In this document: piece after piece, positions 3,669 to 22,222 of the stretch | How positions within the stretch are numbered: position 1 is the first letter of the stretch | How the letters are laid out: each line of letters starts with the position of its first letter | IMG/VR virus record: IMGVR_UViG_2654587772_000001 | DNA: 36,012 nucleotides | From: a virus | Taxonomy: Duplodnaviria > Heunggongvirae > Uroviricota > Caudoviricetes | Direction: 5' to 3' (one strand) | Translations under genes and position numbers: made by a program | Notes under the pieces: generated by a model | Database searches by the model: none | Told to the model about the DNA's origin: nothing | The model's input: only the letters and a program-made list of their open reading frames with translations

Positions 3669-3892
3669 TGCCGGACAACGTAGATTTTATTCAGGAACAA
3701 CAGGCTGAATTACTGGAGCGTCAGATTAACGCGGCAAGGGTAAAACATTGCGGTGCTTCTGCGCTGGTTTGCGAAGAGTGTGACGCGCCAATACCTGCTG
3801 CCCGTCGTGCGGCTTATCCGTCAGCCACGCGTTGTGTTTCCTGTCAGTCAGTCTTTGAAGCAAAAAACAAACATTACCGGAGAACGGCATGA
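3668..3892 (+). CDS. TraR/DksA-family C4 zinc-finger protein (P2 orf82-like)
   Basis: 74-aa ORF with CxxC...CxxC (CEECDAP...CVSCQ); translationally coupled to its neighbours. Confidence 0.7.
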   Translation: MPDNVDFIQEQQAELLERQINAARVKHCGASALVCEECDAPIPAARRAAYPSATRCVSCQSVFEAKNKHYRRTA

Positions 3893-4164: not shown

Positions 4165-6427
4165 AGCCTCCGGGCGTTTTGTCCCTCCGTCAGCATTTGC
4201 CGCAGGCACCGGTAAGACGTTTACCGGTGCTTATGCATGGAACGCGCCACGCGAGGCCGTCGGGCGCGAAAGACCCCTTACACGTGACGAGATGCGTCAG
4301 GTGCAAGGTGTTTTATCCACGATTAACCGCCTGCCTTACTTTTTGCGTTCGCTGTTTACTTCACGCTATGACTACATCCGGCGCAATAAAAGCCCGGTGC
4401 ACGGGTTTTATTTCCTCACATCCACTTTTCAGCGTCGTTTATGGCCGCGCATTGAGCGCGTGAATCAGCGCCATGAAATGAACACCGACGCGTCGTTGCT
4501 GTTTCTGGCAGAGCGTGACCACTATGCGCGCCTGCCTGGAATGAATGACAAGGAGCTGAAAAAGTTTGCCGCCCGTATCTCATCGCAGCTTTTCATGATG
4601 TATGAGGAACTCTGCGATGCATGGGGTGATGCGCATGGTGAAAAAGAATCGCTGTTTACGGATGAGGCGCAGGCTCACCTCTATGGTCATGTTGCTGGCG
4701 CTGCACGTGCTTTCAATATTTCCCCGCTCTACTGGAAAAAATACCGTAAAGGACAGATGACCACGAGGCAGGCATATTCTGCCATTGCCCGTCTGTTTAA
4801 CGATGAGTGGTGGATTAGTCAGCTTAAAGGCCAGCGTATGCGCTGGCATGAGGCGTTACTGATTGCTGTCGGGGAGGTCAATAAAGACCGTTCTCCTTAT
4901 GCCAGTAAACATGCCATTCGTGATGTGCGTGCGCGCCGCCAGGCAAATCTGGAATTTCTTAAATCGTGTGACCTTGAAAACAGGGAAACCGGCGAGCGCA
5001 TCGACCTTATCAGTAAGGTGATGGGCAGTATTTCTAATCCTGAAATTCGCCGGATGGAGCTGATGAACACCATTGCCGGTATTGAGCGTTACGCCGCCGC
5101 AGAGGGTGATGTGGGGATGTTTATCACGCTGACCGCGCCGTCAAAGTATCACCCGACACGTCAGGTCGGAAAAGGCGAAAGTAAAACCGTTCAGCTTAAT
5201 CACGGCTGGAACGATGAGGCATTTAATCCAAAGGATGCGCAGCGTTATCTCTGCCGTATCTGGAGCCTGATGCGCACGGCATTCAAGGATAATGATTTAC
5301 AGGTCTACGGTTTGCGAGTCGTCGAGCCACACCACGACGGAACGCCGCACTGGCATATGATGCTTTTTTGTCATCCACGCCAGCGTAACCAGATTATCGA
5401 AATCATGCGTCGCTATGCGCTCAAAGAGGATGGCGACGAAAGAGGAGCCGCGCGAAACCGTTTTCAGGCAAAACACCTTAACCGGGGCGGTGCTGCGGGA
5501 TATATCGCGAAATACATTTCAAAAAACATCGACGGCTATGCACTGGATGGTCAGCTCGATAACGACACCGGCAGGCCGCTGAAAGACACTGCAGCGGCTG
5601 TTACCGCATGGGCGTCAACGTGGCGCATTCCGCAATTTAAAACAGTTGGCCTGCCGACAATGGGGGCTTACCGTGAACTACGCAAATTGCCTCGCGGCGT
5701 CAGCATTGCTGATGAGTTTGACGAGCGCGTCGAGGCTGCACGCGCCGCCGCAGACAGTGGTGATTTTGCGTTGTATATCAGCGCGCAGGGTGGGGCAAAT
5801 GTCCCGCGCGATTGTCAGACTGTCAGGGTCGCCCGTAGCCCGTCGGATGACGTTAACGAGTATGAGGAAGAAGTCGAGAGAGTGGTCGGCATTTACGCGC
5901 CGCATCTCGGCGCGCGTCATATTCATATCACCAGAACGACGGACTGGCGCATTGTGCCGAAAGTTCCGGTCGTGGAGCCTTTGACTTTAAAAAGCGGCAT
6001 CGCCGCGCCTCGGAGTCCTGTCAATAACTGTGGAAAACTCACCGGTGGTGATACTTCGTTACCGGCTCCCACACCTTCTGAGCACGCCGCAGCAGTGCTT
6101 AATCTGGTAGATGACGGTGTTATCGAATGGAATGACCAGGAGGTCGTGAGGGCGCTCAGAGGTGCATTAAAACACGGTCTGAGAAGACCAAACCGTCAGC
6201 AAAGAAACGGAAGCCCGTTAAAACCGCATGAAATAGCGCCATCGGCCAGACTGACCCGGTCGGAACGAATGCAAATTACCCGTATCCGCGTTGACCTTGC
6301 TCAGAACGGTATCAGGCCGCAGCGATGGGAGCTTGAGGCGCTGGCGCGTGGTGCAATTGTGAACTATGGCGCAAAAGAATTTCATTACCATGTTCAGAAG
6401 GCGTGGGAAGCATTTTCGAGGTGGTAA
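4154..6427 (+). CDS. A: replication initiation endonuclease A (rolling-circle initiator)
   Basis: Track ORF 4112..6427 starts at TTG; first ATG is 4154 (MDVKASGRFVPP...), about 757 aa; long match to remembered P2 gpA including the HxH metal motif (PHWHMMLF) and the YxxK active-site region (AGYIAKYISK). Confidence 0.9.
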   Translation: MDVKASGRFVPPSAFAAGTGKTFTGAYAWNAPREAVGRERPLTRDEMRQVQGVLSTINRLPYFLRSLFTSRYDYIRRNKSPVHGFYFLTSTFQRRLWPRIERVNQRHEMNTDASLLFLAERDHYARLPGMNDKELKKFAARISSQLFMMYEELCDAWGDAHGEKESLFTDEAQAHLYGHVAGAARAFNISPLYWKKYRKGQMTTRQAYSAIARLFNDEWWISQLKGQRMRWHEALLIAVGEVNKDRSPYASKHAIRDVRARRQANLEFLKSCDLENRETGERIDLISKVMGSISNPEIRRMELMNTIAGIERYAAAEGDVGMFITLTAPSKYHPTRQVGKGESKTVQLNHGWNDEAFNPKDAQRYLCRIWSLMRTAFKDNDLQVYGLRVVEPHHDGTPHWHMMLFCHPRQRNQIIEIMRRYALKEDGDERGAARNRFQAKHLNRGGAAGYIAKYISKNIDGYALDGQLDNDTGRPLKDTAAAVTAWASTWRIPQFKTVGLPTMGAYRELRKLPRGVSIADEFDERVEAARAAADSGDFALYISAQGGANVPRDCQTVRVARSPSDDVNEYEEEVERVVGIYAPHLGARHIHITRTTDWRIVPKVPVVEPLTLKSGIAAPRSPVNNCGKLTGGDTSLPAPTPSEHAAAVLNLVDDGVIEWNDQEVVRALRGALKHGLRRPNRQQRNGSPLKPHEIAPSARLTRSERMQITRIRVDLAQNGIRPQRWELEALARGAIVNYGAKEFHYHVQKAWEAFSRW

Positions 6428-6537
6428 TCTAAATATGAAAAATCTGCACACCGAAACACTCTTGTAGGTTGATAATTTGCAAACTAGGTGGATTTACTCT
6501 TTGATGTGTAAGAAGTTATACTACAAAAAATTGATTT

Positions 6538-7458
6538 ATGGGCTTGGCGATGTATAACGATCCTTATAGTGACCCAAAAGCGTGGGAATCATATTTCAAA
6601 AATATTGTTTGGCTACATTATAAGCCTGCTAACTGTTGTGACTTGCCAGATGAGCATGGAGGCGACTTTGGGCTGGAGTGTTACACTCTGAGTGGTCATG
6701 TTTTTCAGTGTTACTTGCCTGAGCAGTCGAGTGATATTGATAAGCTTTATAAAGCGCAACAAAAAAAGATTTATACTGATATAAAAAAGTTTTCTCAGGA
6801 TAACATTAAAGAATTAGAGGAGCTTTTTGGCACATTAAAAATTAGCCGCTGGATATTAGCTACACCATATAATAAATCGGCGAAATTAAGTCAATATTGC
6901 ACAAAAAAATCATTAAAAGTAAGAGAGTTAGGGATTTCTTACGTTGCTGATGATTTTCAAATAGTAGTGCAAACAGATCGAAATTATATAGAAGAAGCGT
7001 TCTTTCTTCGCAAAAATAACTATCAATTAAGCTTTAATATAAATGATGCGACGGCTGAGAATGCTGCTAACTTTATTAGTGAAAATACATCTTTTTTAGA
7101 TAAGCTAAATTTAAAATTACCTAAGATAAATGATGATGTATCTAGGCAGGGTTTATATAGAGAGTTTTTAATACAAAAATATCTTGATTATCAAAACTTG
7201 CTGGATGCTTTGAAGAGAGACTGGGTTGATATCTATGAAATTATCTATAACTGTGTTCAACATAGAGAACGTAATTTGGTAGGTCTCTTTCTTCTTACTT
7301 CATCAGATGCGAAACCATCAGATATAATGAAAGATGAAATCGCTTTGTTAAAGAAATGTATTGAAGAGGAAGTTAGTACGCTTAAACAGGCTGACTTGGA
7401 TAAGATAACATGGGGAGTTATTTCTGATTGGCTTATAAGATGCCCTTTAGATTTTTAG
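6538..7458 (+). CDS. hypothetical protein, gene 1 of the AT-rich cargo operon (candidate effector component)
   Basis: 306-aa ORF in AT-rich DNA at the tin/old position; no motif recognised by eye apart from a Cys/His-rich N-terminal patch (CCDLPDEHGGDFGLECYTLSGHVFQCY); weak RBS. Confidence 0.6.
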   Translation: MGLAMYNDPYSDPKAWESYFKNIVWLHYKPANCCDLPDEHGGDFGLECYTLSGHVFQCYLPEQSSDIDKLYKAQQKKIYTDIKKFSQDNIKELEELFGTLKISRWILATPYNKSAKLSQYCTKKSLKVRELGISYVADDFQIVVQTDRNYIEEAFFLRKNNYQLSFNINDATAENAANFISENTSFLDKLNLKLPKINDDVSRQGLYREFLIQKYLDYQNLLDALKRDWVDIYEIIYNCVQHRERNLVGLFLLTSSDAKPSDIMKDEIALLKKCIEEEVSTLKQADLDKITWGVISDWLIRCPLDF

Positions 7459-7459
7459 A

Positions 7460-7936
7460 ATGGAAAAGCAAATGCATATAACGATAGATGAAATAATAGG
7501 AAGGCCGTTTACGTTTAATAAACGACCTGAACATTTGCCATGTGATATGAGACCATTGTGGCGTTGCAGTTTGTTGCTGATAATATTCCTTGTCACAGGG
7601 AGAGCTGGTTGCTGTTCTTTAAAAAAACTTCATTTAATTAATTGGATGTTAAAGTCAGAGAATAATGAAGCAATGTTTGAATTCTGGCTTTTAAACAAAG
7701 AAGGTTTAAAGCCTGAAGTAAGATTGGATCCAACTTTAGATAGAGCAATACAGCTATTATTAGCAGAGGATTTTATTTTGAGAAATGAACGAGCGTTCAA
7801 AATAAATGAAAAGGGGCTTAAGGTCGCTGAGAAATTGCTTTCTCTTGATGTGTTCAAAGAAGAAAGGTTGGTGCTAAATAAACATAAGGCTGGACTGTCC
7901 GAAACTAACATTAATAAAATATTTCAGGTGGGTTAA
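7460..7936 (+). CDS. hypothetical small protein, gene 2 of the cargo operon (candidate middle/adaptor component)
   Basis: 158-aa ORF; its ATG lies 1 nt after the gene 1 stop and its stop 1 nt before the gene 3 ATG, indicating translational coupling. Confidence 0.55.
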   Translation: MEKQMHITIDEIIGRPFTFNKRPEHLPCDMRPLWRCSLLLIIFLVTGRAGCCSLKKLHLINWMLKSENNEAMFEFWLLNKEGLKPEVRLDPTLDRAIQLLLAEDFILRNERAFKINEKGLKVAEKLLSLDVFKEERLVLNKHKAGLSETNINKIFQVG

Positions 7937-7937
7937 T

Positions 7938-9959
7938 ATGTCGTTGGAAATTATTTCATTGGAGTTAGTAGCAAATACTTCGGATGGGCGTTATGGTGTT
8001 AGTATACCTTTTTCAAATGGCTTGTTTTTATTAAGAGTTGAGAATTCTCATGGTAAATCAACTTGCATGAATGGGATTGCATATGCACTTGGGATGGAAA
8101 AGGCATTAGGTGTCGGTTCTGGAAAAATCCCATTCCCTCCATCTTTGACTAGAGCACTAACGACAAAAGATAATGTTGAAGTTAGTGTAATATCATCTTA
8201 TGTTTTGCTAAAAATAAAGAATCATAAGGGAATAGAAGCATCTTTGAAAAGGAATATTATCGGTCACGATAATAATAATGTTATTTATATAGATGAGAAG
8301 AATAATGTAAAAAGTAAGAGTGGTACTTATTTTTTACATAGAGAGGGCGATACTGAAAGGGAACGTGGTTTCTATAAGTGGTTAGCTGATTTTATAGGTT
8401 GGAGTTTGCCAAATGTTCCAAACCATAATGGGAAGGACACTATTCTTTATCCATCCGTACTTTTCCCTGCATGGTATGTTGAGCAAAAAAAAGGATGGTC
8501 GTCAATTATGGCGACTGTACCAACACAATTTGGAATTAAAGAGCCAAAGAAAAGAGCTCTAGAATTTTTAATGTCTCTTGATGTTAATGATAATATTTTA
8601 TTGCGTAGTTCGTTAAGAAATGAACTTGATATTATTTATCATGATTGGAAGTTAATTAAACACAATGCAGAAGTTATTGCTTCTAAATTGTCGTCAGTTG
8701 TCACAGGGATTCCTGAACAACCAGTGGCAAAATTTGATCATTATAAGATAGATTTGATTATTAAAAATGGTAGCGTCGTTAGATCTATTGTTGATGTTCG
8801 TAATGAACTGGAAAAAGAGTTGCAAGAAATTAAGTTTGACACTCTTGGTGAGCAAGAAGAACAAACTTTACAATTATCAGTGGTTAAGTTATTAGGTCAA
8901 AAAAATGATGAAATTAACTCTCTGGAATTAAAGATTAAAGAGATTTGTGAGCATAGAAGTTATATTCAATATCAAATTCAGGCGACCAAAAACAGATTGT
9001 ATAATCTGTTGGAAGATAAAAGGAAGTATGAAGATTTAAAGAAAATATCATCTTCGGATGCGTATAAGTCAACAGATTTAATGTCAAATATTTGTCCGAC
9101 TTGTGGTGCAAGTTATAATGATAATTTGCTAAGTTTTTCATCGCAAGAAAATCTGATGACATATGAAGATAGTTTGAACTTTATTAAAGAGCAAGTAAAA
9201 GCATTTGAGTTTGTTCTGTCGGATAGTGAAAAGCAATTAAAGCTTAAAGATGTTGAGAGGAGTGATTTAGAGGGGGAAATAGCCAAGATTAGAGTTGATA
9301 TTAATGCATTAAGGGAGTCAAAATATCCCTCAATGGTTGTTCAGGAGGAGTTTCTGAGACGTAAAATAAACATTGAGAATAAAATTAATGCCATTAACGA
9401 TGGCATTAAAAGTATATTGGACATTAGACTGGAGTTGGATTCATTACACCGTAGATATAAAAAGCTTATCGCGAAAAGAAAAGGGTTGCCAGATAATTTC
9501 TTGTCGCGTAATGATGCCGATAAGTTAAAATTTCTTAATAAAGAAGTCGTTGCACGATTAGAAAAATATAATTTTACAAGTTTTGATTCTAAACTTGTGT
9601 CAATATCAGAAGATAATTACTTACCTACTAGGGAAGGATATGATATAGGTTTTGACACATCAGCTAGTGATGGAATAAGAATCATTTGGGGTTATTTAAT
9701 AAGTTTATTTGTTGTTGGTTCTAAATTTCAAACAAATCACCCTGGATTGATTGTGTTTGATGAGCCTCGTCAACAAGAAGCAAATAAAGTAAGTTTTGCC
9801 GAGTTACTTAAAGATGCTGCAGAAACAACAAAAGGACAAGGGCAGATCATTTTTGCTACATCAGAAGATGAAAATGTCTTAAAAGAGGCATTAGAAGGGT
9901 ATGACTATACAATGATATCCTTTGATAAGAACAATGGGAAATTGTTGAGGAAATTATAA
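7938..9959 (+). CDS. SMC/Rad50-like ABC ATPase with coiled coil and CxxC hook (LmuB/DdmC-like), gene 3 of the cargo operon
   Basis: 673 aa; Walker A VENSHGKST (aa 34-42); long E/K/L-rich heptad-like region aa 280-540; CPTC at aa 386-389 (nt 9093..9104) mid coiled coil; signature-like SASDG and Walker B GLIVFDEP (aa 603-610); SD AGGTGG upstream. Confidence 0.75.
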   Translation: MSLEIISLELVANTSDGRYGVSIPFSNGLFLLRVENSHGKSTCMNGIAYALGMEKALGVGSGKIPFPPSLTRALTTKDNVEVSVISSYVLLKIKNHKGIEASLKRNIIGHDNNNVIYIDEKNNVKSKSGTYFLHREGDTERERGFYKWLADFIGWSLPNVPNHNGKDTILYPSVLFPAWYVEQKKGWSSIMATVPTQFGIKEPKKRALEFLMSLDVNDNILLRSSLRNELDIIYHDWKLIKHNAEVIASKLSSVVTGIPEQPVAKFDHYKIDLIIKNGSVVRSIVDVRNELEKELQEIKFDTLGEQEEQTLQLSVVKLLGQKNDEINSLELKIKEICEHRSYIQYQIQATKNRLYNLLEDKRKYEDLKKISSSDAYKSTDLMSNICPTCGASYNDNLLSFSSQENLMTYEDSLNFIKEQVKAFEFVLSDSEKQLKLKDVERSDLEGEIAKIRVDINALRESKYPSMVVQEEFLRRKINIENKINAINDGIKSILDIRLELDSLHRRYKKLIAKRKGLPDNFLSRNDADKLKFLNKEVVARLEKYNFTSFDSKLVSISEDNYLPTREGYDIGFDTSASDGIRIIWGYLISLFVVGSKFQTNHPGLIVFDEPRQQEANKVSFAELLKDAAETTKGQGQIIFATSEDENVLKEALEGYDYTMISFDKNNGKLLRKL

Positions 9960-10082
9960 ACTTTTATGTTGCTGCATTAGAATGCATGATTATTGTTTAT
10001 CTGTTAAGAGTGCTCCGTGCCAGTGTCGGCGCGGAGAAATCATGTCATGCACCTGCATTAAAACCGACCCATGAAGCGGGCG

Positions 10083-10101
10083 GGCGAGGCGGGGAAAGCA
10101 C
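10083..10101. other. cos site (19-nt cohesive end GGCGAGGCGGGGAAAGCAC)
   Basis: Sequence matches the P2 cohesive-end sequence as remembered; located in the GC-rich intergenic region upstream of Q, as in P2. Confidence 0.45.
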
Positions 10102-10243
10102 TGCGCGCTGGCGGTGGTGCTGATTTTATTTTTTCAGCGTCTGAGCGCGTTGTGATGGCGTTTAGATTGTTCGCCGGGGCGTTGGTGTGTATGCGGGCTG
10201 TTTTGTGCGGTGGTGAGCGTGTGAGGGCGTGATGGCGGGGTGT

Positions 10244-10265
10244 AAAAAAGCCGCCTACAGGCGGC
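10244..10265 (-). terminator. rho-independent terminator downstream of Q (minus strand)
   Basis: GC hairpin GCCGCC-TACA-GGCGGC followed, on the minus strand, by a run of six T. Confidence 0.5.
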
Positions 10266-10270
10266 GATGT

Positions 10271-11305
10271 TCAGCCGTTGTCAGTGTCCAGTGAGTAGTT
10301 TTTAAAGCGGATGACCTCCTGACCGAGCCAGCCGTTTATCTCGCGGATCCTGTCCTGTAACGGGATAAGCTCATTGCGGACAAAGACCTTTGCCACTTTC
10401 TCTATATCACCCAGCGATCCGACGTTCTCCGGCTTGCCACCCATCAACTGAAAGGGGATGCGGTGCGCGTCCAGCAGGTCAGCGGCGCTGGCTTTTTTGA
10501 TATTAAAAAAATCGTCCTTCGTCGCCACTTCACTGAGGGGGATAATTTTAATGCCGTCGGCTTTCCCCTGTGGGGCATAGAGAAACAGATTTTTAAAGTT
10601 ATTGCGGCCTTTCGACTTAACCATGTTTTCGCGTAGCATTTCGATATCGTTGCGATCCTGCACGGCATCAGTGACGTACATGATGTATCCGGCATGTGCG
10701 CCATTTTCGTAATACTTGCGGCGGAACAGCGTGGCCGACTCATTCAGCCAGGCAGAATTAAGGGCGCTGAGATATTCCGGCAGACCGTACAGCTCCTGAT
10801 TAATATCCGGCTCCAGCAGGTGAAACACGGAGCCGGGCGCGAAGGCTGTCGGCTCGTTGAAGGACGGCACCCACCAGTAAACATCCTCTTCCACACCACG
10901 GCGGGTATATTTTGCCGGTGAGGTTTCCAGTCTGATGACCTTACCGGTGGTACTGTAACGCTTTTCCAGAAACGCATTGCCGAACACCAGAAAATCCAGC
11001 ACAAAGCGGCTGAAATCCTGCTGGGAAAGCCACGGATGCGGAATAAACGTTGAAGCCAGAATATTGCGTTTGACGTAAATCGGTGAGCTGTGATGCACGG
11101 CAGTACGCAGGCTTTTTGCCAGACCGGTAAAGCTGACCGGCGGCTCATACCATCTGCCGTTACTGATACATTCGACGTAATCCAGAATGTCACGGCGGTC
11201 GAGCACCGGAACCGGCTCACCAAAGGTGAATGCCTCCATTTTCGGGGCGCTGGCGGCCATTGTTTTTACCGCAGGTTGCGGTGTTTTCCCTTTTTTCTTG
11301 CTCAT
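10271..11305 (-). CDS. Q: portal protein Q
   Basis: 344-aa ORF matching P2 gpQ in length and sequence; ATGA overlap with the P stop. Confidence 0.95.
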   Translation of the reverse strand: MSKKKGKTPQPAVKTMAASAPKMEAFTFGEPVPVLDRRDILDYVECISNGRWYEPPVSFTGLAKSLRTAVHHSSPIYVKRNILASTFIPHPWLSQQDFSRFVLDFLVFGNAFLEKRYSTTGKVIRLETSPAKYTRRGVEEDVYWWVPSFNEPTAFAPGSVFHLLEPDINQELYGLPEYLSALNSAWLNESATLFRRKYYENGAHAGYIMYVTDAVQDRNDIEMLRENMVKSKGRNNFKNLFLYAPQGKADGIKIIPLSEVATKDDFFNIKKASAADLLDAHRIPFQLMGGKPENVGSLGDIEKVAKVFVRNELIPLQDRIREINGWLGQEVIRFKNYSLDTDNG

Positions 11306-13077
11306 CAGTAAAACTCCAGAATGGTGGATGTCAGCGGGGTGCTGATACCGGCGGTGAGTGGCTCATTTAACAGGGCATGCATGGTCGCCCAGGCGAGGTC
11401 GGCGTGGCTGGCTTCCTCGCTGCGGCTGGCCTCATAGGTGGCGCTGCGTCCGCTGCTGGTCATGGTCTTGCGGATAGCCATAAACGAGCTGGTGATGTCG
11501 GTGGCGCTGATGTCATATTCCAGACAGCCACGGCGGATAACGTCTTTTGCCTTGAGCACCATTGCGGTTTTCATTTCTGGCGTGTAGCGGATATCGCGCG
11601 CGGCGGGATAGAACGAGCGCACGAGCTGGAACACGCCGACACCGAGGCCGGTGGCATCAATTCCGATGTATTCGACGTTGTATTTTTCGGTGAGTTTGCG
11701 GATGGATTCCGCCTGGGTGGCAAAGTCCATGCCTTTCCACTGGTGACGCTCAAGTATTCTGAATTTGCCACCGGCCACCACCGGCGGTGCCAGTACCACG
11801 CATCCGGCGCTGTCGCCACGGTGTGACGGGTCGTAACCAATCCATACCGGGCGGGAGCCGAACGGATTGGCGGCAAACGGCGCATAGTCTTCCCATTCTT
11901 CCAGCGTGTCGACCATGCAGCGTTGCAGCTCCCCGAACGGGAACACCGATGCCTTGTCGTCAACAAATTCACACATGAACAGGTTTTTAAAATCGTCGGC
12001 GCTGTTTTCGCGTTTGAGCTGCTCAATGTCGAACAACGTGCAGCCGCCTTTCAGGGCGTCCTCAATGGTGACAATCTGCCGCCACTGACCGTCCGCACAG
12101 AGAAGCCCACCGGCAAGGGCGTTATGACTGACGTCGATTTCCACGCGTTCAGCGGCGCTGGCGCGTCCCCGGTTGAACAGTTCACCCGACCAGAACGGGT
12201 AGGCGTCGTGCGCCAGCGTGGACGGGGTGGAGAAATAGGTCGAGCGCAGGTGACTCTGTGAGGCCATACCTGATGCCACCTTACGCAGTACCTGAAAATT
12301 CGGGATCCAGAAAATCTCGTCGACGTACAGGTCGCCGTTATGGCTCTGTGCGGTGTTGGAGTTGGTGCCGAGAAAAATCAGTTTTGCGCCGTTATTGCCA
12401 AGAACAATCGGGTCACCGGTCAGGTCAACGTCAACCAGACGGGCAAAGGCGATGATGTATTCACGGAATACATACGCCTGCGTTTTACTGGCCGACAGAA
12501 AAATCTGGTTATGGCCGGTTTTCAGGGCGCGCAGCAGCGCCTCGCGGGAAAAATAAAACGTCGCGCCAATCTGGCGGGATTTCAGGATATCGCGGATGCG
12601 GTGCTCAAGCCCGGCGCGATACCAGTGCAACTGATAGTCGAAAGACTGCTCAAAGAAAATCTGCTCCAGCTTTTCGATGGCTTCGTCGCTGAAAAAATTC
12701 TTTTTCGGTTTGCGACGTCCGCCTTTGTTGCGGTTAGCGACGTTCGGATTAAGGTCTGCCTCGTTGCCGGTCTGACTGTAACGGTTGACCCGTGCCAGTC
12801 GTTCAATCTGGCGTCCGAGCAGGTCAATTTCCTTGAAGTCACCACCGGTTTTCTGCGGTTTGATGATGAGCTGGGTCAGTCGCGCTTCCAGACTCATTTC
12901 GACACGGCTGATGGGGGCAACGCTGTCCCAGCCGTCGCGCTGTTTCCAGCTCTGCACCGTCGGGCGTTTCATCTGCAACATGGCGGCAATCTGCGGCACG
13001 GAAAACCCCTGCCAGTACAGCAGCGCCGCCTGACGACGCGGGTCGTGTAAAAGAGTGGTGTCTGTGGTGATGGTCAT
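11305..13077 (-). CDS. P: terminase large (ATPase) subunit P
   Basis: Track ORF extends to 13107; first ATG at 13077 gives 590 aa, the P2 gpP length; start reads MTITTDTTLL. Confidence 0.95.
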   Translation of the reverse strand: MTITTDTTLLHDPRRQAALLYWQGFSVPQIAAMLQMKRPTVQSWKQRDGWDSVAPISRVEMSLEARLTQLIIKPQKTGGDFKEIDLLGRQIERLARVNRYSQTGNEADLNPNVANRNKGGRRKPKKNFFSDEAIEKLEQIFFEQSFDYQLHWYRAGLEHRIRDILKSRQIGATFYFSREALLRALKTGHNQIFLSASKTQAYVFREYIIAFARLVDVDLTGDPIVLGNNGAKLIFLGTNSNTAQSHNGDLYVDEIFWIPNFQVLRKVASGMASQSHLRSTYFSTPSTLAHDAYPFWSGELFNRGRASAAERVEIDVSHNALAGGLLCADGQWRQIVTIEDALKGGCTLFDIEQLKRENSADDFKNLFMCEFVDDKASVFPFGELQRCMVDTLEEWEDYAPFAANPFGSRPVWIGYDPSHRGDSAGCVVLAPPVVAGGKFRILERHQWKGMDFATQAESIRKLTEKYNVEYIGIDATGLGVGVFQLVRSFYPAARDIRYTPEMKTAMVLKAKDVIRRGCLEYDISATDITSSFMAIRKTMTSSGRSATYEASRSEEASHADLAWATMHALLNEPLTAGISTPLTSTILEFY

Positions 13078-13145
13078 GAATACCTCGCCGTGATGAATAC
13101 ACGGCAAGGCTACTGAGTCGCGCCCTGCGATTCGCTAAGGTGCTG

Positions 13146-13172
13146 TTGTGTCAGTGATAAGCCATCCGGGAC
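13146..13172 (+). promoter_or_regulatory. late-promoter upstream element (candidate Ogr-dependent PO activator site) TTGTGTCAGTGATAAGCCATCCGGGAC
   Basis: 27-nt motif about 80 nt upstream of the O start codon; a 21/27-identical copy occurs upstream of FI (27684..27710); P2 late promoters carry a conserved activator site near -55. Confidence 0.45.
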
Positions 13173-13250
13173 TGATGGCGGAGGATGCGCATCGTCGGGA
13201 AACTGATGCCGACATGTGACTCCTCTAATCACTATTCAGGACTCCTGACA

Positions 13251-13865
13251 ATGGCAAAAAAAGTCTCAAAATTCTTTCGTATCGGCGTTGAGGGTGACAC
13301 CTGTGACGGGCGTGTCATCAGTGCGCAGGATATTCAGGAAATGGCTGAAACCTTTGACCCGCGTGTCTACGGTTGCCGCATTAACCTGGAACATCTGCGC
13401 GGCATCCTGCCTGACGGTATTTTTAAACGTTATGGCGATGTGGTCGAACTGAAGGCCGAAAAGATTGATGACGATTCGGCGCTGAAAGGCAAATGGGCGC
13501 TGTTTGCGAAAATCACCCCGACCGATGACCTTATCGCGATGAACAAGGCCGCGCAGAAGGTCTATACCTCAATGGAAATTCAGCCGAACTTTGCCAACAC
13601 CGGCAAATGTTATCTGGTGGGGCTGGCCGTCACCGATGACCCGGCAAGCCTCGGCACGGAATACCTGGAATTCTGCCGCACGGCAAAACACAACCCTCTG
13701 AACCGCTTCAAATTAAGCCCTGAAAACCTGATTTCAGTGGCAACGCCCGTTGAGCTGGAATTTGAAGACCTGCCTGAAACCGTGTTCACCGCCCTGACCG
13801 AAAAGGTGAAATCCATTTTTGGCCGCAAACAGGCCAGCGATGACGCCCTGATGACGAACTGCTGA
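13251..13865 (+). CDS. O: capsid scaffolding protein/protease O (shorter than canonical)
   Basis: First ATG 13251 (MAKKVSKFFRIGVEGDTCDGR...) gives 204 aa; track ORF starts upstream without a plausible start; N-terminus matches P2 gpO. Confidence 0.85.
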   Translation: MAKKVSKFFRIGVEGDTCDGRVISAQDIQEMAETFDPRVYGCRINLEHLRGILPDGIFKRYGDVVELKAEKIDDDSALKGKWALFAKITPTDDLIAMNKAAQKVYTSMEIQPNFANTGKCYLVGLAVTDDPASLGTEYLEFCRTAKHNPLNRFKLSPENLISVATPVELEFEDLPETVFTALTEKVKSIFGRKQASDDALMTNC

Positions 13866-13923
13866 CCGGCGTCAGTCAGTCCGGGAAAACCTTCACGATT
13901 AACTCTTAATTTCAGGAAAAACT

Positions 13924-14997
13924 ATGCGCCAGGAAACCCGCTTTAAATTTAATGCTTACCTGTCCCGTGTTGCCGAACTGAACGGCATCGACGCCGGTGA
14001 TGTGTCGAAAAAATTCACCGTTGAACCGTCGGTCACCCAGACCCTGATGAACACCATGCAGGAGTCCTCTGACTTTCTGACCCGCATCAACATTGTGCCG
14101 GTCAGCGAAATGAAAGGGGAAAAAATTGGCATCGGTGTCACCGGCTCCATCGCCAGCACCACCGACACCGCCGGTGGCACCGAGCGTCAGCCGAAGGACT
14201 TCTCGAAGTTGGCGTCAAACAAGTACGAATGCGACCAGATTAACTTCGATTTTTATATCCGCTACAAAACGCTGGACCTGTGGGCGCGTTATCAGGATTT
14301 CCAGCTCCGTGTCCGTAACGCCATTATCAAACGCCAGTCCCTTGATTTCATCATGGCCGGTTTTAACGGCGTGAGGCGTGCCGAAACCTCTGACCGCAGC
14401 AGTAACCCGATGCTGCAGGATGTGGCGGTCGGCTGGCTGCAGAAATACCGCAATGAAGCCCCGGCGCGCGTGATGAGCAAGGTTACTGACGAGGAAGGTC
14501 ACACGACCTCTGAGGTCATCCGCGTGGGTAAGGGCGGTGATTATGCCAGCCTTGATGCACTGGTGATGGATGCGACCAACAACCTGATTGAGCCGTGGTA
14601 TCAGGAAGACCCTGACCTTGTGGTGATTGTGGGACGTCAGCTACTGGCGGACAAGTATTTTCCCATCGTCAACAAGGAGCAGGACAACAGCGAAATGCTG
14701 GCCGCTGACGTCATCATCAGCCAGAAACGCATCGGCAACCTGCCAGCGGTACGCGTCCCGTACTTCCCGGCGGATGCGATGCTCATCACGAAGCTGGAAA
14801 ACCTGTCCATCTACTACATGGATGACAGCCATCGCCGCGTGATTGAGGAAAACCCGAAACTCGACCGCGTGGAGAACTACGAGTCAATGAACATTGATTA
14901 CGTGGTGGAGGACTACGCCGCCGGTTGTCTGGTGGAAAAAATTAAGGTCGGTGATTTCTCCACACCGGCTAAAGCGACCGCAGAGCCGGGAGCGTAA
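13924..14997 (+). CDS. N: major capsid protein N
   Basis: 357-aa ORF matching P2 gpN in length and sequence. Confidence 0.95.
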   Translation: MRQETRFKFNAYLSRVAELNGIDAGDVSKKFTVEPSVTQTLMNTMQESSDFLTRINIVPVSEMKGEKIGIGVTGSIASTTDTAGGTERQPKDFSKLASNKYECDQINFDFYIRYKTLDLWARYQDFQLRVRNAIIKRQSLDFIMAGFNGVRRAETSDRSSNPMLQDVAVGWLQKYRNEAPARVMSKVTDEEGHTTSEVIRVGKGGDYASLDALVMDATNNLIEPWYQEDPDLVVIVGRQLLADKYFPIVNKEQDNSEMLAADVIISQKRIGNLPAVRVPYFPADAMLITKLENLSIYYMDDSHRRVIEENPKLDRVENYESMNIDYVVEDYAAGCLVEKIKVGDFSTPAKATAEPGA

Positions 14998-15000
14998 CCG

Positions 15001-15744
15001 ATGACGAGTCCCGCACAGCGCCACATGATGCGGGTCTCGGCAGCGATGGCCGCGCAGCGGGAAGCCGCCCCGCTGCGACATGCAACTGTCTATGAGCAGA
15101 TGCTGGTCAAGCTGGCCGCAGACCAGCGCACACTGAAAGCGATTTATTCAAAAGAGCTGAAGGCCGCGAAAAAACGCGAACTGCTGCCGTTCTGGTTGCC
15201 GTGGGTGAACGGCGTGCTGGAGCAGGGCAAAGGTGCACCGGATGACATTCTGATGACGGTCATGCTGTGGCGTCTGGATACCGGCGATATTGCCGGTGCG
15301 CTGGAGATTGCCCGTTATGCCCTGAAGTACGGTCTGACCATGCCGGGTAAACACCGCCGCACCCCGCCGTACATGTTCACCGAGGAGGTGGCGCTCGCGG
15401 CCATGCGCGCCCACGCGGCCGGTGAGTCTGTGGATACCCGCCTGCTGACGGAGACCCTTGAACTGACTGCCGCTGCTGACATGCCTGATGAAGTGCGCGC
15501 AAAGCTGCACAAAATCACCGGTCTGTTTCTGCGTGACGGTGGTGATGCCGCCGGTGCGCTGGCTCACCTGCAACGTGCGACACAGCTCGACTGTCAGGCA
15601 GGCGTCAAAAAAGAGATTGAACGACTGGAGCGGGAGCTGAAACCGAAGCCGGAGCCGCAACCCAAAGCGGCCACCCGTGCCACGCGTAAGACCCGGAGCG
15701 TGACACCGGCAAAACGTGGACGCCCGAAAAAGAAAGCCAGTTAA
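15001..15744 (+). CDS. M: terminase small (endonuclease) subunit M
   Basis: 247-aa ORF; P2 gpM length and position; basic C-terminal tail. Confidence 0.9.
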   Translation: MTSPAQRHMMRVSAAMAAQREAAPLRHATVYEQMLVKLAADQRTLKAIYSKELKAAKKRELLPFWLPWVNGVLEQGKGAPDDILMTVMLWRLDTGDIAGALEIARYALKYGLTMPGKHRRTPPYMFTEEVALAAMRAHAAGESVDTRLLTETLELTAAADMPDEVRAKLHKITGLFLRDGGDAAGALAHLQRATQLDCQAGVKKEIERLERELKPKPEPQPKAATRATRKTRSVTPAKRGRPKKKAS

Positions 15745-15843
15745 CAACCGAATGCGCCCCGCGCCAGGGCGGCACGCCGGTCAGTGAGGGTGAATCACCT
15801 GACACTGCACCGGCGTCCACCGCCCGACTTTTCAGAGGTAGTC

Positions 15844-16353
15844 ATGATGACGCTGATTATTCCGCGAAAGGAGGCTCCCGTGTCCGGTGAGGGTACGGTG
15901 GTCATCCCGCAACCGGCAGGCGACGAGCCGGTGATTAAAAACACGTTCTTTTTTCCCGATATCGACCCGAAGCGCGTCCGGGAACGTATGCGCCTTGAGC
16001 AGACCGTCGCCCCCGCCCGTCTGCGTGAGGCCATCAAGTCAGGCATGGCGGAAACAAATGCGGAGCTGTACGAGTACCGCGAACAGAAAATTGCCGCCGG
16101 TTTTACGCGTCTGGCGGACGTTCCGGCGGACGACATCGACGGTGAAAGTATCAAAGTTTTTTACTACGAGCGCGCCGTGTGTGCGATGGCGACCGCGTCG
16201 CTTTATGAGCGTTACCGCGGCGTGGATGCCAGTGCGAAAGGAGACAAGAAGGCCGACAGCATTGACAGCACCATTGATGAGCTGTGGCGGGATATGCGCT
16301 GGGCAGTGGCGCGCATCCAGGACAAGCCGCGCTGCATCGTGAGTCAAATCTGA
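15844..16353 (+). CDS. L: capsid completion protein L
   Basis: Track ORF starts at GTG 15784; ATG 15844 with GAGG RBS gives 169 aa (MMTLIIPRKE...), the P2 gpL length. Confidence 0.85.
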   Translation: MMTLIIPRKEAPVSGEGTVVIPQPAGDEPVIKNTFFFPDIDPKRVRERMRLEQTVAPARLREAIKSGMAETNAELYEYREQKIAAGFTRLADVPADDIDGESIKVFYYERAVCAMATASLYERYRGVDASAKGDKKADSIDSTIDELWRDMRWAVARIQDKPRCIVSQI

Positions 16354-16556
16354 TGAAGACCTTTGCGCTACAGGGCGACACGCTCGACGCCATTTGTGTC
16401 CGGTATTACGGGCGCACTGAGGGCGTGGTTGAGACCGTGCTCGCCGCAAATCCGGGACTGGCTGAACTGGGTGCGGTGCTGCCACACGGCACCGCCGTCG
16501 AACTGCCCGACGTTCAGACCGCGCCCGTGGCTGAAACTGTCAATCTGTGGGAGTAA
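16353..16556 (+). CDS. X: tail protein X (LysM-like)
   Basis: 67 aa from ATG 16353 (MKTFALQGDTLDAICVRYYG...), ATGA overlap with the L stop; track ORF 16284..16556 starts earlier. Confidence 0.8.
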   Translation: MKTFALQGDTLDAICVRYYGRTEGVVETVLAANPGLAELGAVLPHGTAVELPDVQTAPVAETVNLWE

Positions 16557-16559
16557 CGC

Positions 16560-16841
16560 ATGACAGCAGAAGAAAAAAGCGTCCTGTCGCTTTTCATGAT
16601 TGGGGTGCTGATTGTTGTCGGCAAGGTGCTTGCCGGTGGTGAACCCATCACCCCGCGTCTGTTTATCGGGCGCATGTTGCTCGGTGGTTTTGTCTCGATG
16701 GTTGCCGGTGTTGTTCTGGTGCAGTTTCCTGACCTGTCACTGCCTGCGGTGTGCGGCATCGGCTCCATGCTGGGTATTGCCGGTTATCAGGTGATTGAGA
16801 TTGCCATTCAGCGCCGCTTTAAGGGCAGGGGGAAACCGTAA
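16560..16841 (+). CDS. Y: holin Y
   Basis: 93-aa ORF with hydrophobic membrane segments and a charged C-terminus; first gene of the lysis cassette. Confidence 0.85.
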   Translation: MTAEEKSVLSLFMIGVLIVVGKVLAGGEPITPRLFIGRMLLGGFVSMVAGVVLVQFPDLSLPAVCGIGSMLGIAGYQVIEIAIQRRFKGRGKP

Positions 16842-17338
16842 TGCCGGTAATTAACACGCATCAGAATATCGCCGCCTTTCTCGACATGCTGGCCGTGTCC
16901 GAAGGGACGGCGAACCATCCGCTGACGAAAAACCGGGGCTATGACGTGATAGTCACCGGACTGGACGGGAAGCCGGAAATCTTCACCGACTACAGTGACC
17001 ACCCGTTCGCACATGGCCGACCGGCGAAGGTGTTTAACCGTCGCGGTGAAAAATCCACGGCCTCCGGTCGCTATCAGCAGCTTTACCTGTTCTGGCCGCA
17101 CTACCGCAAACAGCTTGCCCTGCCGGATTTCAGTCCGTTGTCACAGGACAGACTCGCCATTCAGTTGATCCGCGAACGCGGTGCACTGGATGACATCCGG
17201 GCGGGACGCATTGAGCGCGCCATTTCACGCTGTCGCAATATCTGGGCGTCCCTGCCGGGTGCCGGTTACGGTCAGCGTGAGCATTCACTGGAAAAACTGG
17301 TCACCGTCTGGCGTACCGCCGGCGGCGTACCGGCTTAA
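16841..17338 (+). CDS. K: endolysin K (lysozyme-like)
   Basis: 165-aa ORF; position and length as P2 gpK. Confidence 0.9.
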   Translation: MPVINTHQNIAAFLDMLAVSEGTANHPLTKNRGYDVIVTGLDGKPEIFTDYSDHPFAHGRPAKVFNRRGEKSTASGRYQQLYLFWPHYRKQLALPDFSPLSQDRLAIQLIRERGALDDIRAGRIERAISRCRNIWASLPGAGYGQREHSLEKLVTVWRTAGGVPA

Positions 17339-17352
17339 ACGGAGTAAACACC

Positions 17353-17778
17353 ATGAAGAAATTATCCCTTTCACTGATGCTGAACGTGTCGCTGGCGCTG
17401 ATGCTGGCACTGTCCCTGATTTACCCGAAGAGCGTGGCCGTCAGTTTTGTCGCTGTCTGGGCGATTCTGGCGACGGTTATCTGTGTGGTTGCCGGTGGTG
17501 TCGGCGTGTATGCCACGGAGTATGTGCTGGAACGCTACGGGCGGGAGCTACCGCCGGAATCGCTGGCCGTGAAGATTGTCGCATCGCTGTTTTTGCAGCC
17601 GGTGCCGTGGCGCAGACGGGCAGTGGCTCTGGTGGTGATGGTGACGACGTTTATCTCGCTGGTCGCTGCCGGGTGGATTTTTACCGCGCTGATTTATCTC
17701 GTGGCGTCGCTGTTCTTCCGGCTGATACGTACGGCCTGCCGTCAGCGTTTTGAGGGGCGGGAACCATGTCAAAGCTGA
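17353..17778 (+). CDS. lysA: lysis accessory membrane protein LysA
   Basis: 141-aa ORF with multiple hydrophobic helices. Confidence 0.8.
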   Translation: MKKLSLSLMLNVSLALMLALSLIYPKSVAVSFVAVWAILATVICVVAGGVGVYATEYVLERYGRELPPESLAVKIVASLFLQPVPWRRRAVALVVMVTTFISLVAAGWIFTALIYLVASLFFRLIRTACRQRFEGREPCQS

Positions 17779-18191
17779 TGACTGTGCTGGTCGTGTTGTT
17801 ATCGCTGGCGGTGGCCGGTCTGTTTCTGGTGAAACATAAAAATGCCAGCCTGCGCGCCTCGCTGGACAGGGCGAACAACGTCGCCAGTGAACAGCAGACG
17901 ACCATCACCATGCTGAAAAACCAGCTTCATGTTGCACTCACCAGGGCAGACAAAAACGAGCTGGCGCAGGTGGCACTGCGTCAGGAACTGGAGAACGCCG
18001 CGAAGCGTGAAGCACAGCGCGAGAAAACCATCACGAGGTTACTTAATGAAAACGAGGATTTTCGCCGCTGGTATGGCGCTGAGCTGCCTGATGCTGTGCG
18101 CCGGTTGCACCAGCGTCCCGCCTGCACCGATGCCAGTGATTGTCCACAACGCCTGCCCGAAAGTGAGTCTTTGCCCGATGCCGGGCAGTGA
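17766..18191 (+). CDS. lysB: LysB (Rz-like spanin, inner-membrane component)
   Basis: 141-aa ORF with N-terminal TM and coiled-coil region. Confidence 0.8.
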   Translation: MSKLMTVLVVLLSLAVAGLFLVKHKNASLRASLDRANNVASEQQTTITMLKNQLHVALTRADKNELAQVALRQELENAAKREAQREKTITRLLNENEDFRRWYGAELPDAVRRLHQRPACTDASDCPQRLPESESLPDAGQ

Positions 18192-18336
18192 CCCGGAGAC
18201 GAACGGCGATTTAAGTGCCGATATCCGGCAGCTTGAGAACGCGCTGGCACGCTGTGCCAGCCAGGTAAAAATGATTAAACACTGTCAGGACGAAAACGAT
18301 GCTCAAACCCGACAGCCTGCGCAGGGCGCTGACTGA
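18046..18336 (+). CDS. lysC: LysC (Rz1-like outer-membrane lipoprotein spanin), starts inside lysB in another frame
   Basis: 96-aa ORF from ATG 18046 (MKTRIFAAGMALSCLMLCAGCTS...) with lipobox LCAGC; extends past lysB as in P2. Confidence 0.7.
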   Translation: MKTRIFAAGMALSCLMLCAGCTSVPPAPMPVIVHNACPKVSLCPMPGSDPETNGDLSADIRQLENALARCASQVKMIKHCQDENDAQTRQPAQGAD

Positions 18337-18766
18337 TGACGTCACGGTGCTGAAAACTAACCCCGATATGCTGCGGATATTCGTGGATAACGGGAGTATT
18401 GCCTCCACGCTGGCGGAGTCGTTGTCATTCGAAAAGCGTTACACGCTCAATGTCATTGTGACCGACTTTACCGGTGATTTTGACCTGCTCATCGTGCCGG
18501 TGCTGGCGTGGCTGCGGGAAAATCAGCCCGACATCATGACCACCGACGAAGGCCAGAAAAAGGGCTTCACGTTTTATGCAGACATCAACAATGACAGCAG
18601 CTTTGATATCAGCATCAGCCTGATGCTGACCGAGCGCACGCTGGTCAGTGAGGTGGACGGCGCACTGCATGTGAAGAATATCCCGGAACCCACGCCGCCG
18701 GAGCCGGTCACCCGCCCGATGGAGCTTTATATCAATGGTGAACTGGTGAGCAAGTGGGATGAATGA
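18299..18766 (+). CDS. R: tail completion protein R
   Basis: 155-aa ORF; P2 gpR length and position. Confidence 0.85.
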   Translation: MLKPDSLRRALTDDVTVLKTNPDMLRIFVDNGSIASTLAESLSFEKRYTLNVIVTDFTGDFDLLIVPVLAWLRENQPDIMTTDEGQKKGFTFYADINNDSSFDISISLMLTERTLVSEVDGALHVKNIPEPTPPEPVTRPMELYINGELVSKWDE

Positions 18767-19220
18767 GTTTAAGCGTTTTGAAGACCGGCTGACCGGACTG
18801 ATTGAGTCGCTGTCACCGTCAGGGCGTCGTCGACTGGCGGTAGATATTGCGAAGAAGCTGCGCCAGCGCCAGCAGCAGCGAATTAAATTACAAAAAGCCC
18901 CGGATGGTACGCCGTATGTACCGAGAAAAAACCAACCAGTACGAAATAAGAAAGGCCGGATAAAGCGGGAAATGTTTATGAAATTACGCACTAACCGGTT
19001 TATGAAAGCAACCGGTAGCGAGAGTGCCGCGGTGGTGGAGTTTGCCAGCGGAGTGCAACGAATTGCGCGAGTGCATCAGTATGGTTTAAAAGATAGACCC
19101 AATCCCGACGTTAAACCTATTAAGTATGATGAACGTAAACTACTTGGTTTTTCACATAATGATATTGACTTTATAGAATCAACGATCATTAATTGTCTTC
19201 TGGAAAAATCCAGAGAATAG
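18759..19220 (+). CDS. S: tail completion protein S (3' end divergent and AT-rich)
   Basis: 153-aa ORF; N-terminus matches P2 gpS; the last roughly 45 codons are AT-rich. Confidence 0.8.
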   Translation: MNEFKRFEDRLTGLIESLSPSGRRRLAVDIAKKLRQRQQQRIKLQKAPDGTPYVPRKNQPVRNKKGRIKREMFMKLRTNRFMKATGSESAAVVEFASGVQRIARVHQYGLKDRPNPDVKPIKYDERKLLGFSHNDIDFIESTIINCLLEKSRE

Positions 19221-19235
19221 GAAGGTAAAGTACAA

Positions 19236-19775
19236 GTGACATGTAAAAAGAATGAAGGTGATGTTGTAAAGAAAATTGAACTGGTGCTGAAAACAATCGC
19301 GCGGACGGATTCTTATTTAAATTCAGCCAATACTAAATCAACGATATTACTAAGCTTAGCTTCAGCTGTAATTGTTGCTATTATAGCAAATTTTGACAAA
19401 GTTATATGTCTGGTAGATGTGGATAGTGATAGGATTTTTCTCTCTCTTTTATTGATTGTAATAGTTGGGTTATTGGTGATCTCTTTGTTATTTTCTCTAA
19501 AAGGTGTTACTCCAAATATCTCTAAGAGTGATAAGGAGAATACTTTTTCATTTGTTGATATATCAAGTTATTATAGTAGTCTTGATTGCTATTCTAGTAG
19601 TTTTAAGTCAGTGAGTGATCTGGAGTTGTTGGAGCAGTTAATTGCATTGAATTATACTCTTTCCAGAGCATTAACTAGCAAATATGAGATGCAAATCATA
19701 GCCATTGACTTTATAAAAATGGCTGTTTATGTGCTTTGTTTTTTAATATATGTGGTTGCTTTATCTAATTGGTGA
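19236..19775 (+). CDS. small membrane protein with 3 predicted TM helices (candidate membrane effector, SLATT/PycTM-like)
   Basis: 179-aa ORF from GTG 19236 (no in-frame ATG until near the end); SD AGGAAGG upstream; hydrophobic stretches STILLSLASAVIVAIIANF, IFLSLLLIVIVGLLVISLLFSL, MAVYVLCFLIYVVALS; AT-rich. Confidence 0.55.
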   Translation: MTCKKNEGDVVKKIELVLKTIARTDSYLNSANTKSTILLSLASAVIVAIIANFDKVICLVDVDSDRIFLSLLLIVIVGLLVISLLFSLKGVTPNISKSDKENTFSFVDISSYYSSLDCYSSSFKSVSDLELLEQLIALNYTLSRALTSKYEMQIIAIDFIKMAVYVLCFLIYVVALSNW

Positions 19776-19785
19776 AGGTTTTTGT

Positions 19786-21138
19786 ATGTCCATAAAGAGT
19801 ATTTATTTAGTATTAGATGAAAGGCTGGAAGAGATAATTTCAAAATCAAAATCGCAATCAGTCCATGATGCTATATTTGAATCAGTGGATAATACACAGT
19901 TGGCCACGGAGAGCTTAAGTAAATCTTCTGGTTTCGTAAGAAGTTCTATTTCATTGAAAAAAGATGTAGGTGGAGCTGATGTTCAAAGTTATCAGGTGAA
20001 AGATATTGTTAGAAATAAATTTGGCAAGCACGGTCCACTCATGACAAGTTTTGGATGTCATCCGGACTTTAATAAAATGGATGATGGTGAGGTGAGAAAT
20101 GGTTATTCCATTACCATGTTTATGGATATAATCGGCTCAACTAAACTTGGGGTTGTTTTTCCACCAGAAATAGTATTTAGAATCAAAAATGATATTATAA
20201 GATGTGCGATCGAAACAGTGAATGCATTTGATGGTCACGTCCATAGAATTATGGGTGATGCAGTAATGGCATTTTTCCGAAGTAATGACCGATATAAAAA
20301 CAATAAGATCGCAGACAGTGCAATTGATGCAATAAACTGTGCCGTTGTTTTGATTGAAATGTTCAAGGGGGTTGTTATACCTAAATTGAGTGATTTGGGA
20401 GTTGACGAAAACTTAGGAATAAGAATTGGTCTTGACTATGGCCCTCACGAGGAAGTGGTGTGGTCAAAATATGGCTATATGGAAAGTCATGAAGTGACTG
20501 CGACATCTTTTTTTGTTGATGTTGCGGCAAAACTTCAGCAAAAAGCTCCTAAAAACTCAATTATGATAGGTGCAAGTTTTGTAGAGTTATTAGGCCTTGA
20601 TGATGTTCAATTAAAACATAAAATTAACAGAAACAATGGCGTAGAACACAAGGAATTGTATTTAACCCCAAATTATAAAGATGCTTCAGGCAAACCAATA
20701 AATTACAGACAATATGTATTTGATAACGAACGTTATTGTAATTTGCTGCCTATAAATGATGAGGGGGGTAAACTCATTGTAAAAGCAACGCTTAAGAAGA
20801 GTGAAAATGATGTGTCTGATGATGAGTATATTTGTTGTTCTCGAATGATAAAAAAGGGTATGGGTATCTCATTTAAAGGGTACTATTACTCACAAGAACA
20901 GTACTCTAATCCCAGGTTCAAATTTCGTGTCGAAAATACAGGTCCTGATGCAGGTAATGTTGATAATAAGGGTAATCATGAGTCATATGAGGTAGCAAGG
21001 TACACTGGCGAGCGTTATTTTGCTAAGCATTGGGAAGATTGTCATTACAAAGGACTGCATTATATGTTTGTATCTTTTTGGAATGGGGATCAATTAATAG
21101 AAAGGGAGAGGTGTTTTTCAGTTTTTATTAACGATTAA
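19786..21138 (+). CDS. class III nucleotidyl cyclase-domain protein (candidate PycC-like cyclase)
   Basis: 450 aa from ATG 19786 (SD GAAGG 8 nt upstream; track start 19750 overlaps the upstream gene); motifs SITMFMDIIGSTKL (aa 108-121), HRIMGDAVMAFF (153-164), GIRIGLDYGP (211-220), SFFVDVAAKL (241-250) resembling the FxDIxGFT / IGDxxMA / GIHxGxV / VNxAARL blocks of adenylyl/guanylyl-type cyclases. Confidence 0.7.
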   Translation: MSIKSIYLVLDERLEEIISKSKSQSVHDAIFESVDNTQLATESLSKSSGFVRSSISLKKDVGGADVQSYQVKDIVRNKFGKHGPLMTSFGCHPDFNKMDDGEVRNGYSITMFMDIIGSTKLGVVFPPEIVFRIKNDIIRCAIETVNAFDGHVHRIMGDAVMAFFRSNDRYKNNKIADSAIDAINCAVVLIEMFKGVVIPKLSDLGVDENLGIRIGLDYGPHEEVVWSKYGYMESHEVTATSFFVDVAAKLQQKAPKNSIMIGASFVELLGLDDVQLKHKINRNNGVEHKELYLTPNYKDASGKPINYRQYVFDNERYCNLLPINDEGGKLIVKATLKKSENDVSDDEYICCSRMIKKGMGISFKGYYYSQEQYSNPRFKFRVENTGPDAGNVDNKGNHESYEVARYTGERYFAKHWEDCHYKGLHYMFVSFWNGDQLIERERCFSVFIND

Positions 21139-21238
21139 ATTGTGATTTATTTGAGGGGGGGAATGTAGTCTGTTGTATCATACCTCACCAAAGCATCAAA
21201 ATTTGCCGCTAGTGTAAACTAGCGGCATCCTTCCCGTT

Positions 21239-22218: not shown

Positions 22219-22222
22219 AACC

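Follow-up and report, generated by a model that had tools for sequence, protein, structure and literature searches.

Protease and scaffold are encoded as separable units in the phages lambda (C/Nu3) and HK97 (gp4, with the delta domain). In phage P2, the two functions lie together in the product of gene O, gpO, a capsid scaffolding protein and maturation serine protease of 284 aa (NP_046759) that we take to belong to MEROPS family S73 and that scaffolds and cleaves the major capsid protein, gpN. Work by Chang et al. from 2009 is said to have found that the C-terminal 90 residues of gpO are necessary and sufficient for assembly, that a predicted helix within these 90 residues (197-257) multimerises, that the terminal Cys matters and is linked to assembly, and that the protease half binds gpN. 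Kizziah et al. (2020; PMC7552001) place the protease in residues 1-141, with the S107A variant being protease-dead, assign a possible role in portal incorporation to the middle part (142-194), and report the C-terminal domain (195-284) as absolutely required for P2 procapsid assembly. As regards the satellite P4, gpN and the P4 protein Sid give rise to small shells without gpO, and viable P4 needs gpO, presumably for its protease and for portal incorporation (PMC7552001).

The window, that is, the whole stretch of 36,012 nucleotides analysed here (IMG/VR record IMGVR_UViG_2654587772_000001), matches NZ_CP007394.1, a genome of Escherichia coli strain ST2747, with 0 mismatches over 33,930 nt. 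It contains a P2-like prophage whose gene O lies, as in P2, between genes P and N, flanked by a divergent large-terminase gene (11305..13077, - strand) and a P2-family major capsid gene (13924..14997, + strand). The ORF starts with the ATG at 13251, ends with the TGA at 13863-13865 and comprises 204 codons plus the stop, as had been stated in a preliminary description of this DNA. The parts of the gene are the following:

13251..13865, + strand: gene O with an internal in-frame deletion, from the ORF and alignments; RefSeq pseudogene CF60_RS14315
13251..13673, + strand: N-terminal protease domain, kept (residues 1-141, the O* fragment; limits from PMC7552001)
13674..13847, + strand: middle segment, kept (residues 142-199), which holds the first five residues of the scaffolding domain
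13837..13848, unstranded: deletion junction with the sole surviving repeat copy, TGACGCCC at 13841-13848 and GCGATGACGCCC from 13837
13848..13865, + strand: extreme C-terminus, kept, Leu280-Cys284 (LMTNC) and the TGA, from the alignment

The product begins with MAKKVSKFF and ends with GRKQASDDALMTNC. A 901-nt query around the gene spans 1141 nt, in two pieces, in 30 of the 30 phage matches listed, which include P2, L-413C, fiAA91-ss and several Yersinia P2-like phages. Alignments with P2 (NC_070906) and with the Yersinia phage vB_YpM_115 reduce this difference to a single clean gap of 240 nt, or 80 aa: residues 1-199 are collinear, with 1 substitution relative to P2 and 0 relative to vB_YpM_115, residues 200-279 are absent, and LMTNC and the stop resume in frame. 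P2 gpO is accordingly about 98% identical to the window's residues 1-199 and 280-284 and holds the residues 200-279 that the ST2747 allele lacks. The existence of the deletion itself is thus essentially certain, and the preliminary description, which had put P2 gpO at about 284 aa (it has 284) and had proposed an in-frame loss of about 80 aa with the extreme C-terminus kept, is borne out to the residue. Only the ending it quoted, ALMTNC, needs correction: LMTNC is right, and the A before it was counted twice, the sequence reading ...SDDA-LMTNC.

At the level of the family, the product matches the Pfam profile PF05929 (Phage_GPO) with 305.6 bits (cut-off 33.6) over profile positions 1-195 of 268, whereas full-length P2 gpO covers positions 1-268; the C-terminal helical scaffolding domain characteristic of the family (P2 residues 195-284, profile positions of about 196-268) is not found here. 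Because the match ends at position 195 of 268 and residues 200-279 are gone, gene O is a damaged, incomplete member of PF05929, a pseudogene-type allele, rather than a complete one. RefSeq also labels it a pseudogene, 'capsid scaffolding protein; incomplete; missing C-terminus', a wording that is imprecise, as the loss is internal and the C-terminus is present. Searches with gpO of PDB sequences and of NCBIfam gave no matches.

What remains is well preserved. Asp19, His48 and Ser107 are all in the 204-aa protein and are invariant among 24 homologues; following Chang et al. 2009, we take Asp19 and His48 to be the catalytic residues of the protease together with Ser107. The C-terminal L-x-T-x-C ending is present as LMTNC, and the family alignment shows no variation at C284. 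An AlphaFold2 model, made for a full-length homologue from a shallow alignment of 24 sequences, has a single helix at 197-272, where its local confidence is best; the model as a whole is of low confidence (mean pLDDT 52) and was used for the helix boundary only. Together with the reported limits of the scaffolding domain (195-284; PMC7552001), this low-confidence helix agrees with the statement in the preliminary description that the C-terminal helical region of gpO is its scaffolding part. The deletion removes essentially the entire scaffold helix and spares the protease domain, linker and final five residues. In this respect the ST2747 remnant resembles the stand-alone prohead proteases of systems such as lambda C/Nu3 and HK97 gp4 with the delta domain, where the scaffold function is separate. 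No substitute scaffold and no second gpO-like locus were found, at the sensitivity of blastn, in the prophage or the rest of the ST2747 genome, and the latter result makes rescue in trans by another P2-like prophage unlikely.

The ends of the gap coincide with a pair of short direct repeats. The closest full-length alleles (three alleles) have two copies of the octamer TGACGCCC, one at gene position 591 and the other at 831, exactly 240 nt apart, and the extended copies, GCGATGACGCCC and GCGGTGACGCCC, agree at 11 of 12 positions (GCGrTGACGCCC). There are thus two copies flanking the segment in the ancestral form and exactly one at the junction, and this one has its left flank from the first repeat and its right flank from the second, the classic footprint of a deletion between direct repeats, which points to slippage or microhomology as its origin. 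The closest full-length allele found among the matches listed is that of vB_YpM_115 (OR545056), a deposited and presumably viable phage; it differs from the window at 2 nt over the retained 615 nt, encodes the same amino acids there, has both TGACGCCC copies and carries the extra 240 bp. Canonical P2 (NC_001895), by contrast, has TGATGCCC at the left site and is without the perfect repeat.

Of 5,426 complete E. coli genomes, 2 contain a 46-nt sequence spanning the junction, namely NZ_CP007393.1 and NZ_CP007394.1. These two ST2747 genomes go back to one stool isolate from a Belgian outpatient with a urinary tract infection and its laboratory nitrofurantoin-resistant derivatives (PMC3983296), and since both derive from the same isolate, they count as one natural lineage and as two separate sequencing experiments. 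The same 204-aa protein and the same junction are also found on a 12.7-kb Logan contig of SRA run SRR23598355, SRR23598355_241, with the gene at 3001-3615. Over 6.6 kb, this contig and the window are 97.4% identical, with 170 aligned positions that differ; 11 of these are synonymous changes inside gene O, and those nearest to the junction lie 34 nt upstream of it and 23 nt downstream. Compared instead with the FRIK944 prophage, a P2-like element of E. coli O157:H7, it is 99.97% identical, bar the same 240 bp. Each short allele is thus far closer to a full-length relative than to the other short allele; the deletion in SRR23598355 is therefore an independent event, and the repeat pair inside gene O has been used for inactivation at least twice. 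A common origin of the two alleles through recombination is unlikely, both on account of these closer full-length relatives and because the tract of identity at the junction is at most 59 bp long (13812-13870).

A different deletion of the same kind is present in P0070, a protein of 246 aa from an ENA metagenome contig. The ends of its in-frame loss fall on the 8-bp repeat GGCAAATG, found at gene positions 238 and 352, and the loss removes 38 residues of the protease domain, whereas the ST2747 allele loses the scaffold domain instead. Repeat-mediated loss thus seems to be a general decay route for gene O.

Apart from gene O, the prophage looks complete, as the preliminary description had it. 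It is inserted between yegR and an ORF of 453 aa (34651..36012, - strand), keeps the P2 order of the hallmark genes (Q, P, O, N, M, L, T), and comprises the following features around the lesion:

475..34506, unstranded: entire P2-like (Peduovirus) prophage, with a perfect att repeat of 28 bp at either end (475-502 and 34479-34506)
10083-10101: cos 19-mer, intact
10271..13077, - strand: full-length genes Q (portal) and P (large terminase)
13078..13250, unstranded: divergent late promoter region of genes P and O, 173 of 174 nt as in P2
13924..14997, + strand: full-length major capsid gene N, whose product of 357 aa has 99.2% identity to P2 gpN

A tblastn search with all P2 proteins finds complete counterparts, with 96-100% amino-acid identity, of Q, P, N, M, L, X, Y, K, R, V, W and J as well as of FI, FII, E, T, U, D, ogr, int, C, cox, B and A; S (58%) and I (82%) are full length and diverged from P2, and the tail-fibre module H/G is replaced. 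The only further lesion found is in the non-essential orf80 (DUF2732; 3142..3366, + strand), where codon 20, Arg in P2, is a premature stop in both ST2747 assemblies. Since the other essential P2 genes, cos and both att sites are intact, and since the surviving residues of gpO are all unchanged relative to its closest full-length relative, the lesion in gene O is young and evolutionarily recent.

Taken together, we consider it highly probable that gene O has suffered a spontaneous, repeat-mediated deletion of 240 bp, with which head assembly would have been lost. Replication slippage or microhomology-mediated recombination would have joined the two TGACGCCC copies and left one of them, and as the frame is kept, the late operon downstream (N, M, L onward) would be read normally. 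The product would consist of the serine protease (1-141), the middle segment and the last five residues with their Cys, with nearly all of the long C-terminal helix gone. P2 is not SOS-inducible; once the prophage is derepressed by other means, such as Cox, P4 epsilon or superinfection by P4, replication, tail formation and lysis would be expected to proceed; the coat protein, deprived of an internal scaffold, would fail to nucleate proper T=7 procapsids, and few or no infectious P2 particles would be formed. The prophage is thus probably head-defective, its intact looks notwithstanding, and the defect suggested in the preliminary description is a sound inference, because the lost residues 200-279 lie within the C-terminal domain 195-284 and the rest of the prophage looks complete. 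Given the kept protease half and terminal Cys, some residual assembly activity may persist.

This is an ordinary, recent inactivating deletion in a well-known gene that already carries a pseudogene flag in RefSeq, and the additions to what is known are modest: the exact mechanism, the independent recurrence and the apparent presence of co-resident P4-like elements. Three points, the RefSeq flag, the repeat-mediated origin and the recurrence, go beyond the preliminary description. The practical lesson is a small one: a prophage that automated tools would rate as intact is probably head-less through a single in-frame lesion, in a gene that still has an ORF and a strong family match. Before a prophage is declared inducible, its hallmark genes should therefore be examined for their length and for how much of the family profile they cover.

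The alternative that fares best is that the short allele is retained for a selected function, either that of a helper for P4-like satellites only or that of a poison subunit against superinfecting P2-like phages, and we regard it as unlikely. Its premises are that Sid builds its shell from the outside, that gpN and Sid form small shells in the absence of gpO, and that the parts of gpO relevant to P4, the protease and possibly the region of portal incorporation (142-194), lie in the kept segment. Satellites are apparently at hand: by match counts with chimeric queries, a tag from the O region alone finds 1 place in each of the two ST2747 assemblies, the tag joined to P4 sid (735 nt) finds 4 and 3, and the tag joined to sid-delta-psu likewise 4 and 3. 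These 3 and 2 extra places, outside the window, correspond to 2-3 sid-like loci, so that late-gene clusters of P4-like satellites seem to be present in 2-3 copies; in the annotated surroundings of leuX and thrW of ST2747, there is no sid/delta/psu cluster. The anti-phage systems that the prophage carries, Lamassu and Pycsar, would moreover benefit the host regardless of virion output. Against all this stands the extreme rarity of the short allele, which is found in 1 strain among about 1,540 genomes with gene O and speaks for drift rather than selection. It is accordingly improbable that the prophage acts as a satellite-only helper, one that would have lost its own T=7 heads and still supply coat, protease, portal, terminase, tails and lysis to P4-like satellites. 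If it did, the recurrence in an O157:H7-type background would hint that hosts or satellites have a recurrent way of disarming a helper while keeping it, and, with P4-like satellites still served, the protease and portal roles of gpO would be cleanly separated from its scaffold role in vivo; this possibility is the one aspect of wider interest.

Still less likely than a retained helper or poison function is that gpO is naturally short here and fully functional, the residues that remain or a different protein acting as the scaffold. One could read in this way the preservation of the frame, the protease, the C-terminal Cys and downstream expression, as well as the occurrence of an identical allele in two lineages; both cases, however, sit at the tips of their lineages with full-length nearest relatives, which fits a fresh mutation and not a maintained variant, and the domain lost is the one reported as absolutely required for P2 procapsids (PMC7552001). 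The junction 46-mer is found in 0 of 50,697 deposited phage records, and a degenerate pattern of the junction has no matches in IMG/VR, JGI metagenomes or GTDB representative genomes. The long form, on the other hand, is present in about 1,495-1,540 complete E. coli genomes, and among 4,711 homologous protein clusters, the best 120 are nearly all of 284 aa, or of 295 aa through an upstream start call. The preliminary description had allowed that homologues of about 204 aa might be common among P2-like phages; with all 30 of the phage matches listed being longer and the best 120 clusters almost all at 284 or 295 aa, short homologues are ruled out as the family norm across phages, E. coli genomes and protein clusters. 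A spontaneous inactivating deletion therefore remains our preferred reading.

That the assembler dropped 240 bp from a gene O that is in truth full length is extremely unlikely: the ST2747 genomes are indeed PacBio C2/HGAP assemblies of early date, with about 28x coverage and an optical map for the order of the scaffolds (PMC3983296), the chromosomes of the clonal derivatives differ in size by about 90 kb, and numerous genes are called frameshifted, including valS, and gpN in NZ_CP007393.1, but the usual errors of this technology are 1-bp indels and not a clean, repeat-bounded loss of 240 bp in unique sequence, the same junction was obtained in two separately sequenced ST2747 derivatives and in an unrelated assembly from a different run and prophage background (SRR23598355), and a repeat of 8 bp is too short to collapse multi-kilobase long reads and also, assuming that the Logan contig was built so, too short for a short-read k-mer graph.

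The frameshift calls themselves deserve a comment. That in capsid gene N is confined to one derivative (positions 20103-21177 of L005, the locus in NZ_CP007393.1), and that in valS lies at positions 22041-24895 of L010, the locus in NZ_CP007394.1. Both genes should be intact; the calls look like PacBio indel errors, and single-base lesions in the ST2747 records are untrustworthy.

Other entries of about 204 aa do exist in the databases (P0002, P0003, P0005, P0006 and more) and fall into the same 90% cluster. They have different ends, ...ARLNDV(H) or ...AVTAV(A), are mostly labelled 'partial', and are read as truncations at contig ends and not as the ST2747 allele. Many of the gpO fragments in the P0001/P0002 protein cluster (209 members) stop at residues 202-212, again mostly as 'partial', and some of them recur on 7 to 34 contigs, P0003 on 34. 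Assemblies of short reads may often break where the C-terminal domain of gpO starts, a possible cause being co-resident P2-like prophages that have the N-terminal part in common and differ downstream.

Several regions outside the head genes set this prophage apart from P2. The diverged genes S (18759..19220, + strand) and I (23124..23735, + strand) have neighbours that are 97-100% identical to those of P2 and appear to be local mosaic replacements beside the cargo and tail-fibre modules. At the site of the P2 tin/old cargo, between gene A and cos/Q (6538..9959, + strand), there are three genes without Pfam matches, all of them hypothetical in RefSeq, that match the PADLOC models LmuA, LmuC and LmuB (E = 1e-29, 2.5e-23 and 1e-98) of the Lamassu anti-phage system. 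A second cargo, at the P2 orf30 site between S and V (19236..21138, + strand), is a Pycsar pair: the effector PycTM, of 179 aa, and the cyclase PycC (PADLOC, E = 1.6e-128). Further defence genes lie elsewhere in the ST2747 genome: the leuX tRNA island (L010-L011; NZ_CP007394.1, 482431-506000) holds an integrase, a Dnd/Dpt phosphorothioation system with a truncated dptH, and a type I Zorya system, and the leuX and thrW surroundings also include a degraded remnant of small size that carries AbiE and a reverse transcriptase.

In phage Mu, a tail-fibre segment is invertible and switches the host range. A 1.9-kb tail-fibre segment of the ST2747 prophage (24555..26468) is reversed between the two assemblies, positions 30738-32651 of L005 corresponding to 26468-24555 of the window at 99.95% identity, a difference in orientation that would fit an invertible, host-range-switching segment, the source assemblies being error-prone. 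The segment adjoins a gene that RefSeq assigns to a recombinase family (27123..27716, + strand), and in the window's orientation the fibre gene H is only 441 aa long.
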